A stretch of DNA of 22,176 bases from positions 1-22,176 of IMG/VR virus record IMGVR_UViG_2585427971_000007. The stretch is one strand, 5' to 3'. Source of the stretch: a virus. Its lineage: Duplodnaviria; Heunggongvirae; Uroviricota; Caudoviricetes. The position numbers and the translations under genes were made by a program. Positions 16,360 through 22,176 of the stretch are shown here, in pieces. The notes beneath the pieces were generated by a model. It saw only the letters and a list, made by a program, of their open reading frames with translations. It was not told where the DNA came from and did not search any database. Positions within the stretch are counted from its first letter, which is position 1. Every line of letters starts with the position of its first letter.

Positions 16360-17240
16360 ACACTCCTCGTCAGTATTCTGGCGGCCATTGCACTTAATCC
16401 CGGAGACATGCGGTTGAATGCTGTGCCGGCGGCGTTAAGCTGCCCGGAAACGGTATCCAGAGCACCTGCAATATTTCTTTTGTCCACACCACTCAGCGCA
16501 GACTGTGCCTGCTGTACATACGTGGCTGCTTCGCTGGCTGTTCTGGCCAGACTGATGGCATCGGGCATGGATTCAGAGAGTGCGTTAAACGCCGGAACAC
16601 TTTTCCCCAGAGCCCCGGAGATATTACCCAGTCCGCTCATCAGCCCCGGCACACGGGTCAGTGCGACAACGGGGTTATCCTTCATTTTCTGTGTCACCCG
16701 AACGGCGCTGATAGTGGTCTGGAGTACAGACTGCGCCTGTTTCGCATAGTTGACGCCGTTGCGGATGAACTGCGCCACCCCTGAAGGTGAAGGAATGGCA
16801 CCGGAGACCGCCCCGACACCCGGGAGCTTCGTGCGTATTGCCGGTGGTTGCAGAGGATTTTTCGGATCACCGGTGTATTCCCGGAGAGACACGGTGGCAC
16901 TGACAGCCAGCACGTTACCGGTGCTGTCTGTCTGCTCGCTGGTTGCGGTCACATCGGTAATCACGAACCAGCCACGATAGTCACCGTTGCCGAAGACCAG
17001 CGCCAGTGCCTGATGGGCTTTCATGGCTGTTCGCAGTCTCGCCAGCTCCACATCGGGTACACAATAATGCTGATGGAAAACCAGAGTTATCTGGATTTCG
17101 TCCAGCCTGTCGCCGACGAACTGCAGGCCAGGCTTACCCCCGATGCGGGCATGCTCCGCATAATCGACGCCGAACGTGGCCTCGAAGCCGTCCCAGTAGG
17201 TAATCAGCTCAAACTCAATATCACCCAGTACGGCAAACAT
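16356..17240 (-). CDS. Tail protein with gpU-like N-terminal domain and C-terminal extension
   Basis: 294-aa ORF between tape measure and gpX/gpD genes; family call tentative. Confidence 0.55.
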   Translation of the reverse strand: MFAVLGDIEFELITYWDGFEATFGVDYAEHARIGGKPGLQFVGDRLDEIQITLVFHQHYCVPDVELARLRTAMKAHQALALVFGNGDYRGWFVITDVTATSEQTDSTGNVLAVSATVSLREYTGDPKNPLQPPAIRTKLPGVGAVSGAIPSPSGVAQFIRNGVNYAKQAQSVLQTTISAVRVTQKMKDNPVVALTRVPGLMSGLGNISGALGKSVPAFNALSESMPDAISLARTASEAATYVQQAQSALSGVDKRNIAGALDTVSGQLNAAGTAFNRMSPGLSAMAARILTRSV

Positions 17241-17491
17241 CAGCGGTACTCCTTACGTTGTTTCTGAGCCAGCAGACGCTCCAGCATTTTTTCCAGCTCA
17301 TGCAGGCTCATATTCAGGGCGCCAGTCAGTCCGGCAGGCGCTGTGGTTTCCCTGCCATTGAGGAAAAACTGAGGATTAAAGCTGACCTGGATACCACCAG
17401 ACGTTCCACCGCCGGTTGCAGCTGCACCACGGCCTGAATATCCGGCAGCCAGGATTTCAGGCGAGGGGATACGGGGAACATCCGGTGTCAT
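17240..17491 (-). CDS. Small hypothetical tail-module protein (83 aa), Gly/Ala-rich
   Basis: Start overlaps the tape-measure stop (ATGA); low-complexity composition lowers confidence. Confidence 0.45.
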   Translation of the reverse strand: MTPDVPRIPSPEILAAGYSGRGAAATGGGTSGGIQVSFNPQFFLNGRETTAPAGLTGALNMSLHELEKMLERLLAQKQRKEYR

Positions 17492-20451
17492 CTCATTTGC
17501 CAGACGTTGCCCTGGTAAAATCGATGCCCGGGTGGAGAGCGGAATAGCGGCATGGAAGACAAACTATTGATTACGGCTCCGATCGCATTTTTAGCAGACG
17601 ACATAAACCCATTGATATCGGGCAACGGCATACTGAAGCGAACACCTGAAGTGTTATCCCGTATTTCTGGCCCCTGAATGCTCACGGGCATTCTGGGGAG
17701 CAGTTCACTGGCCATTCGCTGCCCGGCCAGAGCTGCAAGCGGAGTGGTCCGCTGCAGGCCAATGGCGGCCCCCTGCGCGATATTGTCACCAAAGCCCATA
17801 AACACGCGGCTCGGCGAATGAATGCCCAGCTTTTCGCTGAACCAGCCACTGATGCTGTCACCCATTCCGGTTACACTGGATTTGAGCGACTCCCATTTGT
17901 TTTTGATACCGTTAATCAGACCGTCGACAAGATGGCCACCGAAGTCGGTGAACTTTGCCGGCAGATCAACACCAAGATATTTCAGCGCAGCTGCAAAGGC
18001 TTTATAGAGCAGACCTGCCGGCGACCAGTTAATCAGCAGCTTACCAGTTCCCGCGATACCGCCGTTAAAGGCTTCCTGAATGTCAGCCCAGCACTGTTTA
18101 AACCAGCTACTGATGCTGTCACCCATTCCGGTTACACTGGATTTGAGCGACCCCCATTTGTTTTTGATACCGTTAATCAGACCGTCGATAAGATGGCCAC
18201 CGAAGTCGGTGAACTTTGCCGGCAGAGCAACGCCGAAATATTTCAGCGCAGCCGCAAAGGCTTTATAGAGCAGGCCTGCCGGCGACCAGTTAATCAGCAA
18301 CTTACCAGTTCCCGCGATACCGCCGTTAAAGGCTTCCTGAATGTCAGCCCAGCACTGTTTAAACCAGCTACTGATGCTGTCACCCATTCCGGTTACACTG
18401 GATTTGAGCGACCCCCATTTGTTTTTGATACCGTTAATCAGACCGTCGATAAGATGGCCACCGAAGTCGGTGAACTTTGCCGGCAGAGCAACGCCGAAAT
18501 ATTTCAGCGCAGCCGCAAAGGCTTTATAGAGCAGGCCTGCCGGCGACCAGTTAATCAGCAACTTACCAATTCCCACAATGCCGCCGTTAAAGGCTTCCTG
18601 AATGTCTGCCCAGCGCTGTTTAAACCAGCCACTGACTGCCCCCCAGTTGCGGTAGATAAGGTAAGCTGCTGCCGCGACAGCGGTGATAACGAGACCGATG
18701 GGATTCATCATCAGCGCACGTCCAATCCAGAGAACAGCACGTCCGGCGAGCATAATTCCGCGAACCAGCCCCCCGGAGAGCACGCCACTCAGTGTTCTGG
18801 CTCCTTTGGCGACGGCGCTAAATCCGGTCACCAGCCAGCGGAGCTTACCGCCTTGCCCCAGTGCGAGCGACAGACGAAGCCAGTTGGCCCGAAGTAAAAC
18901 AGCATTTTTCCAGACACTTACAAAGGGGGAAATAAGGAGATTCAGCCCCAGTTTGAGACCAACAGTCGCTATCTTAATCGCAAGGAGCGCACTGATGAGC
19001 TTAAAAGCCCCACTGACAAATTGCGGGTGAGTCGCTACCCAGTGTTTTGCCCCCTGAATGAGTGGAAGCAGTTCCTGAGTCAGAGAAATAAAAGATGGAG
19101 CTAATTGATCGCCCAGCGTAATTGCCAGATCACGACTGCTGACCATAAGTGCTTTAGTGGCTTCAAGGGGAGATTTCAGCCGCTGATCATAAGCACTGGC
19201 AAGCAAATCGTTATCCGCAGCCCTGAGAGCACCGGCACGGATCTCTCGATATCTGTCCATGTTGGCCAGCATCGGGCGGATAAATGCCATGACCTGCATA
19301 TCCGCGAACATATCGCCCAGACCAAAGTTTTTCGCCAGAGCCTGAAGTGCCTCATCTCTTGCCGTATCATTCTTTATTTTCATGGCTGATTTGAAGCCGG
19401 CCAGCGCTTCGGGGCTTTTGGCATTGAGGTAACGTTCTATAACACTCAACATCCCTTCAATCGGAGAGATCCCCGCAGCTTTATAACTCGCAATAGATCC
19501 CTGCAAATCAATACCCAGATCAGCAAACTGTTTCTGAGTATCGCGGGCAAAAATTTTGGTAAGAAAGTTTTTAAAATTATTGGCTGCTTCGTCGGTGGAA
19601 CCTGCACCGATTTTTGCTATCTGGAGACTGGCCCCGATTTCAGCAACAGCCTCTTTTCCACTGGCAATACCCGCCATCATTGGGGCCAGGGACTGCATCC
19701 ACTTGACCTGATCCGGGATTTCAAATGACCCCTGGTCACCGGCATAAGCCATAATATTCTGAACGGCACCAAAATCTCTGGCCGCACCTTTCAGGGAGTT
19801 TTGCCAGACTGCGGCCACTTTTGCCCAGTCCTGAGCAGACGTGCGTGTTGCCGTTGCCGCGCGGGCAATATCCGGCATCAGAAAACCGATATCTGACACA
19901 TTATCAATATTGTCGCTGATGAGTGAACCCACCGCCTCCTGCAGCTCATCCTGATACTGATTGTATTTAAGCGCCCAGCCTTTTATCTGTCCGGCAAGTG
20001 CATCCCGCGTTTTATTGTCATATTTTGCGGTGATCGACATATCAATCATTTTGTCCTGAAAAGACATGGACTGCTGAACGGCAGGGGAAACCGTATGATA
20101 AACAGTCTGTGCCATGCCATACGCTTCAATCCCCTGACCATACAGCGCCATGCGGTTAGCTTTCAGCGCATCACTGGTAGCGGATGCCGCTGACAGACGG
20201 CGCTGCTGGCGCTCAATTTGCTCCATGGTGCGGCTTACCCGCAGCAGCTCGCTGTTGAGATGCTGCATCCGGGAAGAACCCAGTTGACCATAACGTTCTG
20301 TTGCACGGGTTAAAGCGTTCTGACGTTCCTGCAGGCGGCGTGAGGTATCGCTCAGGGAATCAAGCGCACGGCGGGTACCGCTCATTGCAGAACGGAATGT
20401 GCTACCAATCATCCCGCCGATAACAACGCCGACTGAAAACTGTCCCGACAT
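17488..20451 (-). CDS. Tail tape measure protein
   Basis: 987-aa ORF with GGAGG RBS, coiled-coil-rich N-terminus, hydrophobic central segments, internal tandem repeats; position after the chaperone pair. Confidence 0.9.
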   Translation of the reverse strand: MSGQFSVGVVIGGMIGSTFRSAMSGTRRALDSLSDTSRRLQERQNALTRATERYGQLGSSRMQHLNSELLRVSRTMEQIERQQRRLSAASATSDALKANRMALYGQGIEAYGMAQTVYHTVSPAVQQSMSFQDKMIDMSITAKYDNKTRDALAGQIKGWALKYNQYQDELQEAVGSLISDNIDNVSDIGFLMPDIARAATATRTSAQDWAKVAAVWQNSLKGAARDFGAVQNIMAYAGDQGSFEIPDQVKWMQSLAPMMAGIASGKEAVAEIGASLQIAKIGAGSTDEAANNFKNFLTKIFARDTQKQFADLGIDLQGSIASYKAAGISPIEGMLSVIERYLNAKSPEALAGFKSAMKIKNDTARDEALQALAKNFGLGDMFADMQVMAFIRPMLANMDRYREIRAGALRAADNDLLASAYDQRLKSPLEATKALMVSSRDLAITLGDQLAPSFISLTQELLPLIQGAKHWVATHPQFVSGAFKLISALLAIKIATVGLKLGLNLLISPFVSVWKNAVLLRANWLRLSLALGQGGKLRWLVTGFSAVAKGARTLSGVLSGGLVRGIMLAGRAVLWIGRALMMNPIGLVITAVAAAAYLIYRNWGAVSGWFKQRWADIQEAFNGGIVGIGKLLINWSPAGLLYKAFAAALKYFGVALPAKFTDFGGHLIDGLINGIKNKWGSLKSSVTGMGDSISSWFKQCWADIQEAFNGGIAGTGKLLINWSPAGLLYKAFAAALKYFGVALPAKFTDFGGHLIDGLINGIKNKWGSLKSSVTGMGDSISSWFKQCWADIQEAFNGGIAGTGKLLINWSPAGLLYKAFAAALKYLGVDLPAKFTDFGGHLVDGLINGIKNKWESLKSSVTGMGDSISGWFSEKLGIHSPSRVFMGFGDNIAQGAAIGLQRTTPLAALAGQRMASELLPRMPVSIQGPEIRDNTSGVRFSMPLPDINGFMSSAKNAIGAVINSLSSMPLFRSPPGHRFYQGNVWQMR
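17840..18640. repeat. Tandem array inside the tape-measure gene: ~3 copies of a 261-bp (87-aa) unit
   Basis: Protein repeats WFKQCWADIQEAFNGGIAGTGKLLINWSPAGLLYKAFAAALKYFGVALPAKFTDFGGHLIDGLINGIKNKWGSLKSSVTGMGDSIS; plus-strand shadow ORFs recur every 261 bp. Confidence 0.9.
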
Positions 20452-20526
20452 AGTGGTTAACCTCCGGGGAAGGTGAAAAGACGTGAGGGGATAACGCAGA
20501 ACAGCCGCTACTGGCGGCTGTCTGTA

Positions 20527-20630
20527 CTATGATTTGTCGCCGTACTCGCTTTTTATTTGCTCTTCAGCCTGCTCCAGCCACATCTCCAGATCGTCAGTAT
20601 CGAGGGCATCAATCTCCCCCGGCTGAAACC
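20527..20630 (-). other. Putative frameshift extension (E'-like) of the tail assembly chaperone
   Basis: Second frame stays open past the chaperone stop and encodes an acidic tail (DALDTDDLEMWLEQAEEQIKSEYGDKS); G-run CCGGGGGAG followed by UGA at the overlap. Confidence 0.55.
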
Positions 20631-20944
20631 GGAACCATCTCGCCAGCAGCCCCTGCGCCTGCGTCAGCGCCCTGGTTGCTCTCACCCATCCCCGTGATGA
20701 GCTGAAATCGTTTCTGTAACTGCAGGTAATCAGCCAGATCCATATTGTCGAGATCTTCCGGGAGAAGACCAGTACTGCGGGCAATCAGCGGTTCGTCCCA
20801 GTCTGCCGGGTTTTTGCTGATTTTGCGCACCTGCTTCAGGTCTTTTACCGTCAGGCGTTTCAGTTCAACCAGCTCAATTCTGGTGCCTGCAGCAGTGGTG
20901 AAGGGATAAGACAATTTAAAAGTATCGGATGGGGTCTGTGACAT
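20609..20944 (-). CDS. Tail assembly chaperone (P2 gpE-like)
   Basis: 111-aa ORF with CAGGAG RBS immediately upstream of the tape-measure gene, overlapped by a second ORF in another frame. Confidence 0.75.
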   Translation of the reverse strand: MSQTPSDTFKLSYPFTTAAGTRIELVELKRLTVKDLKQVRKISKNPADWDEPLIARSTGLLPEDLDNMDLADYLQLQKRFQLITGMGESNQGADAGAGAAGEMVPVSAGGD

Positions 20945-21041
20945 GATTGTGCTCCTGTGTAAGTTCAGGGCAGTATGTCGGGAGAAGCGCGTGACGGATA
21001 TTAAAGGAGATTAAGAAGAAGGGGCCGGAGCCCCTGTGATG

Positions 21042-21290: not shown

Positions 21291-21324
21291 CGTCCTCCTT
21301 TATCCGTCAGTTCAACACTCACCG

Positions 21325-21816
21325 TCAGCCCCCGATATTGATACGGTAGTCAGTCAGTTGATCAACACCGCCGACCCGGAAGATGTTGGCCAGATAGTCC
21401 AGTTGCAGCAGCTCTTCACCATCCAGTACCTGTCTGATATACGTGCAGGTGAAGCTACTGGAGAACTCGGCGTTCTCGTGCTGTTTGAACGTCCCCAGCG
21501 GGTTCTTCTTGAACATAATCGTCAGGAAGGTGACCAGCGGGATTTCGTCAATCAGCCCCTGCGAGCTGTAGCGCTGGACGCTGGAACGACACTGCAGTGC
21601 CAGCGACCTGTACGGGTTCGCGGCAGACAGCATCGGCATCGCGGTAAAAGCTGTTCCATTTGATTTCGCCTTCCAGTTTGTCAAAACCAGCCGGGAGTTC
21701 CACCTTACCCACCATCCCCAGCGCCTTGTGTTCCTGCATAATCATGGAGACATCGGGGAGTTTAACTTCCTCAGCCCGTCCCAGCAGGTTAGTACCATCC
21801 AGATAGATGTTGGCAT
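21325..21816 (-). pseudogene. Tail tube protein (P2 gpFII-like), reading frame interrupted twice
   Basis: Tube-like sequence is split across frames: N-terminal part NANIYLDGTNLLGRAEEVKLPDV...KLEGEIKWNSF in one frame with no usable start, C-terminal part ...FKKNPLGTFK...NIFRVGGVDQLTDYRINIGG in another; family match judged from recalled P2 FII features. Confidence 0.5.
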
Positions 21817-21834
21817 TTCGTGATGCGGTTTATC

Positions 21835-22176
21835 TCAATCTTTGACATCAGTTGCCCCTTTCAGGGTTAACAGGTATTCCGAGGTGATCTCAGTCTCAAA
21901 CGTCAGTCGCTCCAGCGGCGGTGGTGGCGTATATTTGTAGCTCAGCAACAGGTGCCCGGCGGCCAGCTCCGTCTCCGGATTGCGGGCCGGATCAAACCAG
22001 CAACGGAAGCCCAGTACCGCACCATCACCAGTCATTTTGCGACCGTAGGCGTTGACCGACTCCGTCAGTGCATCAATCAGCGCCTGAGTAATCGGCATGT
22101 CGATGTACTGGCTGAAATAACGAATGGACTCGTTGATCACATCACCGGTGCGGCGAACGTTCTCAAAGTTACGCAT
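21835..22176 (-). CDS. Probable tail sheath protein, C-terminal fragment (5' end beyond the window)
   Basis: ORF open to the window edge, immediately upstream of the tube gene; assignment by synteny only. Confidence 0.5.
   Translation of the reverse strand: MRNFENVRRTGDVINESIRYFSQYIDMPITQALIDALTESVNAYGRKMTGDGAVLGFRCWFDPARNPETELAAGHLLLSYKYTPPPPLERLTFETEITSEYLLTLKGATDVKD

Follow-up and report, generated by a model that had tools for sequence, protein, structure and literature searches.

Probable +1 frameshifting at a conserved UUU_C in the tail assembly chaperone genes of a BcepMu-like Escherichia coli prophage

Gene E, which encodes a tail assembly chaperone, and the overlapping frame E' probably form a pair of the lambda G/GT type, in which a minority of ribosomes would slip by +1 at the UUU codon of Phe80 and thereby produce a 138-aa E+E' protein. 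The pair lies in a stretch of 22,176 nucleotides of viral DNA, referred to here as the window. An earlier note on this DNA had placed the shift at a G-run; comparison with relatives instead points to a conserved UUU_C, some 30 codons further upstream, as the most likely site. The same note had read E and E' as a chaperone pair whose longer product calls for a shift of +1 (or -2) and not -1, and this reading is supported by the PF10109 match of E, the kinship of E' with GpE and the position of the extension, which is always in the +1 frame.

Overall organization of the E/E' locus

The element that carries E/E' is a BcepMu-like E. coli prophage, and all genes in the E/E' part of the window are on the minus strand, in the order tube gene, small hypothetical gene, E/E' and tape measure gene (Table 1). 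The locus is part of a BcepMu-like myovirus prophage that combines Mu-like head genes with a P2-like tail. Annotation of identical E. coli prophages places the tube and sheath genes upstream of E, while the PF10145 tape measure gene and a homologue of P2 gpU lie on its downstream side. Among phage records, that of Escherichia phage PhiKM (genus Bcepmuvirus) is the closest, with 99.7% identity.

Table 1. Coordinates of the E/E' locus and neighbouring features in the window
Feature	Position	Strand	Basis
Gene E, tail assembly chaperone, 111 aa, standard decoding	20609..20944	-	ORF; PF10109; phrog_166; RefSeq name
Predicted +1 shift site CGA_UUU_C	20704..20710	-	Conserved in relatives; CGA 20710-20708, UUU (Phe80) 20707-20705, C 20704
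E' extension, 58 codons and stop, +1 frame, SSSRGWVRATRALTQAQGLLARWFRFQPGEIDALDTDDLEMWLEQAEEQIKSEYGDKS	20527..20703	-	Variation pattern, conservation, phrog_8286, P2 GpE kinship
85-aa mechanical ORF, TTG start	20527..20784	-	ORF list; upstream third is merely open +1 frame
G-run (five G) in CCG GGG GAG, Pro-Gly-Glu of E'	20616..20620	-	Sequence; unconserved as shift site
Tape measure gene, 3' of E/E'	17240..20451	-	PF10145; comparison with strain 510016
Tail tube gene, 5' of E/E'	21326..21850	-	Annotation of identical prophages; private indels break the gene
Stem-loop between E' stop and tape measure start codon	20497..20524	-	Fold of the enclosing 81-nt stretch

Residues 8-81 of E match the Pfam family PF10109 (Phage_TAC_7), described as 'tail assembly chaperone proteins E, or 41 or 14', with an E-value of 5.5e-21 and a score of 74.8 bits (cut-off 25). 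E also belongs to phrog_166 (tail protein) and carries the RefSeq label 'phage tail assembly protein'. The 111-aa ORF and the 85-aa ORF that overlaps it are both present as the earlier note described them, and their starts are 160 nt apart (160 mod 3 = 1), which confirms the +1 offset of the second frame. The upstream third of the 85-aa ORF is probably noncoding. The five-G run also stands where it was said to be, two codons ahead of the UGA stop of E (20611-20609). On the other hand, the description of a UGA 'two codons before' the E stop is garbled, since that UGA is the E stop itself, and the -1 frame, which was said to stop immediately, stays open for about 21 codons after the G-run and 18 past the E stop (…GRLMPSILTIWRCGWSRLKSK, then a stop).

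The segment 20440-21010 of the window (571 nt) is present in 640 of 5,426 complete E. coli genomes, including that of the ST131 strain EC958, and is 100% identical to several complete E. coli genomes. Because of this identity to finished genomes, and because the same +1 geometry is found in about 150 distinct relatives, the E/E' geometry is no assembly artefact.

Coding potential of the +1 frame

Relatives of the locus were taken from four sources: 32 loci on contigs with one genome per species; 160 IMG/VR loci from two scans, the second of which was anchored on BcepMu; three more distant loci reached via the exact protein; and the records of BcepMu, P2 and Mu. Among approximately 150 distinct relatives, which extend from Enterobacterales to the Burkholderia phage BcepMu, the E'-like peptide is always in the +1 frame relative to E, the exceptions being a few in-frame fusions (L030, L121 and L130). 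Thus, in the alignment with homologous chaperone pairs that the earlier note had asked for, the frame of the extension is conserved. The consensus of the +1-frame peptide over these sequences is …L.(Q/E)A..LLARWFRFQP(S/G)E(I/L)D.L…W…A..QIK.E…, its identity across Enterobacterales, Burkholderia-type and metagenomic relatives is 32-75%, and the third codon positions vary freely. Counted from the Phe codon, the extension spans 51-62 codons in nearly all relatives.

E' matches phrog_8286 with an E-value of 1.3e-32. The window's own E' scores 16.4-18.4 bits against PF06528 (GpE), below the Pfam cut-off of 23, and PF06528 matches at E < 0.01 in the extensions of 11 out of 20 diverse relatives (best 6.4e-6). 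In addition, the E' family profile was aligned with P2 E' by hhalign at a probability of 83% (E = 8.9e-6). These profile matches point to kinship of the E' extension with the GpE/E' domain of P2. A search of NCBIfam with E, E' and the fusion gave zero matches, and a search of solved structures with the E+E' fusion gave no match.

The entropy at each codon position was calculated over 73 distinct enterobacterial sequences. Variability peaks at base 3 of the E frame up to codon 84 and, from codon 86 onwards, at base 1 of that frame, equivalent to base 3 of the +1 frame; codons 81-85 exhibit partial constraint in both frames. The +1 frame is under purifying selection from about codon 86. At the best aligned position of the +1 frame, a start codon occurs in only 36 of 141 sequences, and an SD-like sequence is found ahead of any candidate +1-frame start in only 14 of them. 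Since the +1-frame peptide is conserved and no conserved start codon accompanies it, a fusion product made by a +1 shift is well supported by these comparisons.

It was also considered that E' is made as a small free protein, with no frameshift, corresponding to the 45-aa 'GpE family phage tail protein' that RefSeq lists in some relatives. The RefSeq pipeline indeed calls this CDS in two relatives (L003 and L004) from an ATG (MQAQGLLARWF…), and some gene callers list the 85-aa TTG ORF (P0117). However, the ATG used by RefSeq is ACG in the window and ATT, TGG or CGT elsewhere, any aligned start is restricted to at most the 36 sequences mentioned above, with SD-like sequences rarer still, and the +1-type variation begins approximately 12 codons upstream of this ATG. 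Moreover, in P2 the domain homologous to E' is known to be produced solely as part of a fusion (GenBank annotation; PMC3091744). A free E' protein is therefore improbable.

It is even harder to regard the 85-aa ORF as spurious or vestigial, with E alone being made. G+C-rich genes often contain ORFs this long in other frames, and RefSeq has no annotation here for this allele, but neither the 32-75% identity of the +1 peptide with third positions free to vary nor its homology to an essential P2 domain is expected from such an ORF, and this reading is extremely unlikely. Two further outcomes that the earlier note had named as damaging to its proposal, an independent gene and a spurious ORF, are thus disfavoured by the conserved peptide and the lack of a conserved +1-frame start.

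In two relatives, E and E' are joined in a single ORF. In L030 (Apirhabdus apintestini CP138906.1), the junction of the frames precedes the Phe codon by about five codons, and in L130 (an IMG/VR contig), it follows the Phe codon by seven; these fusions may be mutations or sequencing errors.

The conserved UUU_C at Phe80

A zero-frame TTT followed by C is found at the codon homologous to Phe80 in 148 of 149 distinct relatives, 145 of them when every Phe codon within the permitted interval was listed without bias and the other three (L130, L134 and L146) by eye. For comparison, the remaining Phe codons of E are TTT and TTC in about equal numbers (163 vs 180). The sole relative without UUU_C, L139 (IMG/VR 3300046474_000594, positions ~1100-1130), reads GUG UUG CGG. 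Since this relative nonetheless retains a conserved E' in the +1 frame, either the shift takes place at a different site there or the locus is defective.

In the 73 enterobacterial sequences, the entropy of codons 79-81 (CGA UUU CAG) is near zero. The codon after UUU always begins with C, being CAG, CAA, CAT, CGN or CUN, and the bases flanking TTTC are otherwise highly variable in the diverse set, which was selected on TTTC, so that only the flanks are informative. In Burkholderia-type relatives, the site reads UCC/GCC_UUU_CGN. UUU_C is the only invariant slippery element near Phe80. The position of the E stop ranges from 6 to 36 codons after Phe80 among relatives, which places the shift at, or just after, Phe80. 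For the window, a shift a few codons downstream of Phe80 is also conceivable, given the dual constraint at codons 81-85.

The rare Arg codon CGA precedes UUU in 115 of 141 distinct relatives and is not universal in the family. Within the enterobacterial clade, its third base has an entropy of H = 0.18, compared with H = 1.06-1.56 at the Arg codons R30, R40 and R56. By analogy with the literature on prfB, the conserved CGA may act as a weak E-site codon that affects the slip. Other stimulators were sought around the site. RNA structure in the fold of 20730-20620 is not significant (z = -0.28), a short hairpin that follows UUU is unconserved in relatives, and no upstream SD-like stimulator was seen by eye in enterobacterial or Burkholderia-type contexts. 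The next zero-frame codon of the window, CAG, is not rare in E. coli.

Three other routes to the extension were rejected. Transcriptional slippage would require a longer run than three T; a -2 slip at or near Phe80 offers no re-pairing two bases upstream of UUU or CAG; and the -1 frame closes after 1-6 codons in many relatives and encodes an unconserved peptide with no Pfam match.

Proposed mechanism of E+E' synthesis

We infer the slip at UUU_C from sequence comparison, and the roles of E and E+E' by analogy with known chaperones. Most ribosomes would read E to its stop and yield the 111-aa chaperone. On a minority of ribosomes, the peptidyl-tRNA-Phe (anticodon GAA) on UUU (20707-20705) would slip by +1 and re-pair with UUC (20706-20704), which would give a G:C pair instead of the G:U wobble, and decoding would resume at AGC. 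The predicted product consists of residues 1-80 of E and 58 further residues (SSSRGW…GDKS), and it would contain the entire Phage_TAC_7 domain together with a P2-GpE-like C-terminal domain. If lambda G/GT and P2 E/E+E' are a guide, the N-terminal domain common to both products would cover the tape measure protein, recruitment of the tube protein would fall to the E' domain, and a low slip frequency would set the ratio of E to E+E'. The roles of the P2 and lambda proteins form part of the general background on tail chaperones (PMC5009743, PMC3091744). In bacteria, UUU_Ynn is documented to have an unusual tendency to shift by +1, which does not depend on a stop codon (PMC5009743).

Alternative slip sites

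According to the earlier note, the likely site of the shift is the G-run with the UGA stop, at the end of E. The slip there would be either +1 on GGG_G or -2 from GGA to GGG. The product would then be E1-109/110 followed by EIDALD…, 138-139 aa in total, with the junction …MVPVSAG(G)EIDALDTDDLEMWLEQAEEQIK. Several features of the window agree with this site: either slip lets tRNA-Gly re-pair perfectly on GCC_GGG_GGA, the verified -2 site of Mu also has five G (CGG_GGG_CGA), GGA is a low-usage codon with the stop two codons on, and assemblies that miss one G (P0007, P0009 and L121) encode exactly this fusion. However, the G-run is unconserved, and relatives have CCG AGU GAG, CCU GGG GAG or CCC GGC GAA in its place. 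It is both present and reachable by the E frame in just 24 of 153 distinct sequences, while in 69 of the 153 (about 45%), the E frame ends upstream of it. In Symbiopectobacterium, Citrobacter and Burkholderia-type relatives, the E stop lies 6-15 codons after Phe80, upstream of the LLARWF core, and a widespread 104-aa allele of E terminates with a UAG that precedes the first G-run codon by five codons. In addition, a shift at the G-run would leave the strongly conserved upstream +1 segment (…L.QAQGLLARWFRFQP) untranslated, so that its variation at base 3 of the +1 frame and its homology to the P2 E' core would be unexplained. Based on these results, the G-run is quite unlikely to be the shift site.

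A four-G version of 20616-20620 recurs in public assemblies (P0007, P0009 and L121) and gives an in-frame …VSAGEIDALD… protein of 138 aa. These alleles could be slip-strand mutations in prophages or homopolymer sequencing errors, and they are no evidence for ribosomal slippage.

Another candidate is a +1 slip at Gly85, ACG_GGG_A (20692-20689), where tRNA-Gly would move from GGG to GGA. The switch of the variable base at codons 84-86 fits this site equally well, and among the enterobacterial sequences its GGG hardly varies (H = 0.10, 0 and 0.41 at the three bases). However, the base that follows is A, C or G (H = 1.51), so re-pairing would often fail, as on GGC; the codon itself is GGC in Lonsdalea relatives, and Burkholderia-type relatives have no Gly codon at the matching spot. 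A slip at Gly85 is thus very doubtful, and the conserved UUU_C at Phe80 is the preferred site.

Comparison with known frameshift systems

A close parallel in architecture is E/E+E' of P2. As in the window, a PF10109 chaperone is followed by a GpE-like extension, and the pair is flanked by the tube gene and the tape measure gene. The P2 shift codon, like the one proposed for the window, encodes a Phe where the chaperone domain ends on its C-terminal side, and the extension is of similar length (57 residues in P2 and 58 in the window). The two differ in the shift itself, which in P2 is -1 at a T_TTT_TTG heptamer (the proven site GGT TTT TTG, annotated at 19685), whereas in the window it would be a single-tRNA slip of +1 at UUU_C within CGA_TTT_CAG. 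The zero-frame tail after the site is 7 codons in P2, but long and variable (6-36 codons) in this family. The PF10109 match ends at residue 85 in P2 (profile position 78 of 79) and at residue 82 in the window (76 of 79), and these end coordinates put the Phe approximately 3 profile positions earlier than that of P2 (74 vs 77 of 79). MAFFT brings the Phe of P2 and Phe80 together in a single invariant column only by opening a gap of 4 residues immediately ahead of them. Past the shift, P2 has GAVTFPKNL and relatives have the similar GWLHKPKQL. When the profiles of E and P2 E were compared directly by hhalign, nothing was found (probability 0.1%), and the homology of the two chaperones rests on their shared Pfam family.

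Mu gp41 is likewise a tail chaperone upstream of the tape measure gene with an extension in the +1/-2 frame. Its match to PF10109 is marginal (24.7 bits, just below the 25-bit cut-off), and it matches PF23746 (Gp41_Mu) at 9.1e-35, whereas for the E of the window PF10109 alone is reported. Unlike the proposed shift in the window, that of Mu is a verified -2 at CGG_GGG_CGA near the end of a longer gp41, and no GpE-like motif is seen by eye in its extension. The G-run of the window has a different register (GGG_GGA), is unconserved and often cannot be reached in the zero frame. The window resembles Mu only in the direction of the shift.

In lambda, the proposed logic of G/GT is shared with the window: a common N-terminus, genes flanked by those for the major tail and tape measure proteins, and a ratio set by a low slip frequency (PMC5009743). 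Lambda differs from the window in its -1 shift and in being a siphovirus. The gene order, an overlapping ORF without a conserved start, and a conserved slippery sequence within the overlap, by which G/GT pairs are recognized, are all present in the window.

At the level of the slip itself, the site is similar to the UUU_Ynn sites of influenza A PA-X and Yersinia YopN-TyeA, in which a zero-frame UUU is followed by a pyrimidine, with no adjacent stop. The new frame reads UUC or UUU at those sites and UUC in the window. The +1 site of influenza PA-X is UCC_UUU_CGU (PMC5009743, PMC3498833). PA-X differs from the window in its host and gene, and also in the slow A-site codon invoked for it, which has no obvious counterpart in the window, where the corresponding codon, CAG, is common in E. 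coli.

BcepMu (AY539836), the type phage of the genus of PhiKM, has the same gene order as the window, with gp42 in the +1 frame of gp41. In its GenBank record (L042, 603-1364), gp42 is equated with lambda G, and gp43 is listed as the product of slippage. Homology instead identifies gp41 as E (PF10109) and gp42 as the E' frame, with TCC_TTT_CGC at the aligned Phe. The gp43 ORF lies in the 275-nt spacer before the tape measure gene, and its translation looks noncoding and off-frame by eye.

Novelty and implications

The geometry of the pair is less common, as the earlier note stated, but it had already been documented. Tailed-phage chaperones use -1, -2 or +1 shifts, and Mu uses -2 (Atkins et al. 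review, PMC5009743; PMC2628397). A +1 requirement is thus uncommon yet not new. In the literature searched, which did not extend to Xu et al. 2004 and Christie et al. 2002, no paper ties UUU_C to a tail chaperone. The assignment of the UUU_C site appears to be unrecorded so far, although an earlier mention of the clade in Xu et al. 2004 is possible.

Among 5.8 billion proteins, the predicted junction was found in none, and the only fusions were generated by indels at other positions; the slippage product is therefore unannotated. RefSeq annotates E alone, and also the free GpE ORF in some relatives. The predicted E+E' protein of a common prophage family is absent from public protein sets and sometimes mis-called as a free 45-aa protein, and the BcepMu record assigns it to the wrong ORF pair. 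A rule based on the conserved UUU_C could let annotation pipelines join the ORFs correctly.

A broader proposal, which could equally well prove right or wrong, is that a whole clade of Mu/P2-hybrid prophages makes E+E' by a +1 slip on a bare UUU_C, with neither a stop codon nor a visible stimulator, at the Phe codon where P2 shifts by -1. The clade is found in about 12% of complete E. coli genomes and is widespread across Proteobacteria. If the proposal is true, the direction of the frameshift has been flipped while its position and both protein domains have been kept, and the Burkholderia-type members use the minimal cassette of PA-X (UCC_UUU_CGN). Homologous chaperones that slip by -1 (P2) or by +1 (the clade) at the same codon would offer a system for studying the direction and efficiency of slipping, and the site would be a bacterial counterpart of the PA-X UUU_C site, apparently without a slow codon, a stop or an SD-like stimulator. 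In other respects, E/E' is an ordinary part of phage tail assembly.

Neighbouring genes

Compared with E. coli strain 510016, the window has five single-base indels and one 3-nt deletion in 10.3 kb. The differences are located at ~17550, 21278, 21636, 21818, 21858 and 22110, and none falls within 20440-21010. The tube region 21300-21900 (601 nt) is present in 637 complete E. coli genomes, none of which exceeds 99.5% identity to the window, so its three indels are private to the window. Because of the indels, the tube gene falls into two frames, and the tape measure gene is split as well. This pattern suggests homopolymer-type assembly errors or a decaying prophage.

In reference strains such as 510016, where it is a single CDS of 3213 nt, the tape measure gene encodes 1070 aa, whereas in the window, a private 1-nt deletion near 17550 leaves an ORF of 987 aa and another of 83 aa (17491-17240). 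Within this gene, a unit of 261 nt (87 aa) is repeated in tandem at 17840-18635, with 3.0 copies and 96% matches. The allele of EC958 is exactly 261 nt shorter (983 aa vs 1070), and this copy-number polymorphism of the unit should change the tail length. The PhiKM record has a sequencing gap at the same repeat.

In three relatives (L123, L124 and L126, at about 1580-1900 in each), E' is separated from the tape measure gene by an extra ORF of 86-99 aa, which is encoded on the opposite strand and has no Pfam match. In the window, the stem-loop CAGCCGC…GCGGCUG is found between the E' stop and the tape measure start codon. The enclosing 81-nt stretch (20535-20455) folds with -24.4 kcal/mol (z = -4.0), a stability equalled by 0 of 200 shuffled sequences, and in relatives the stem is kept while the loop is variable.
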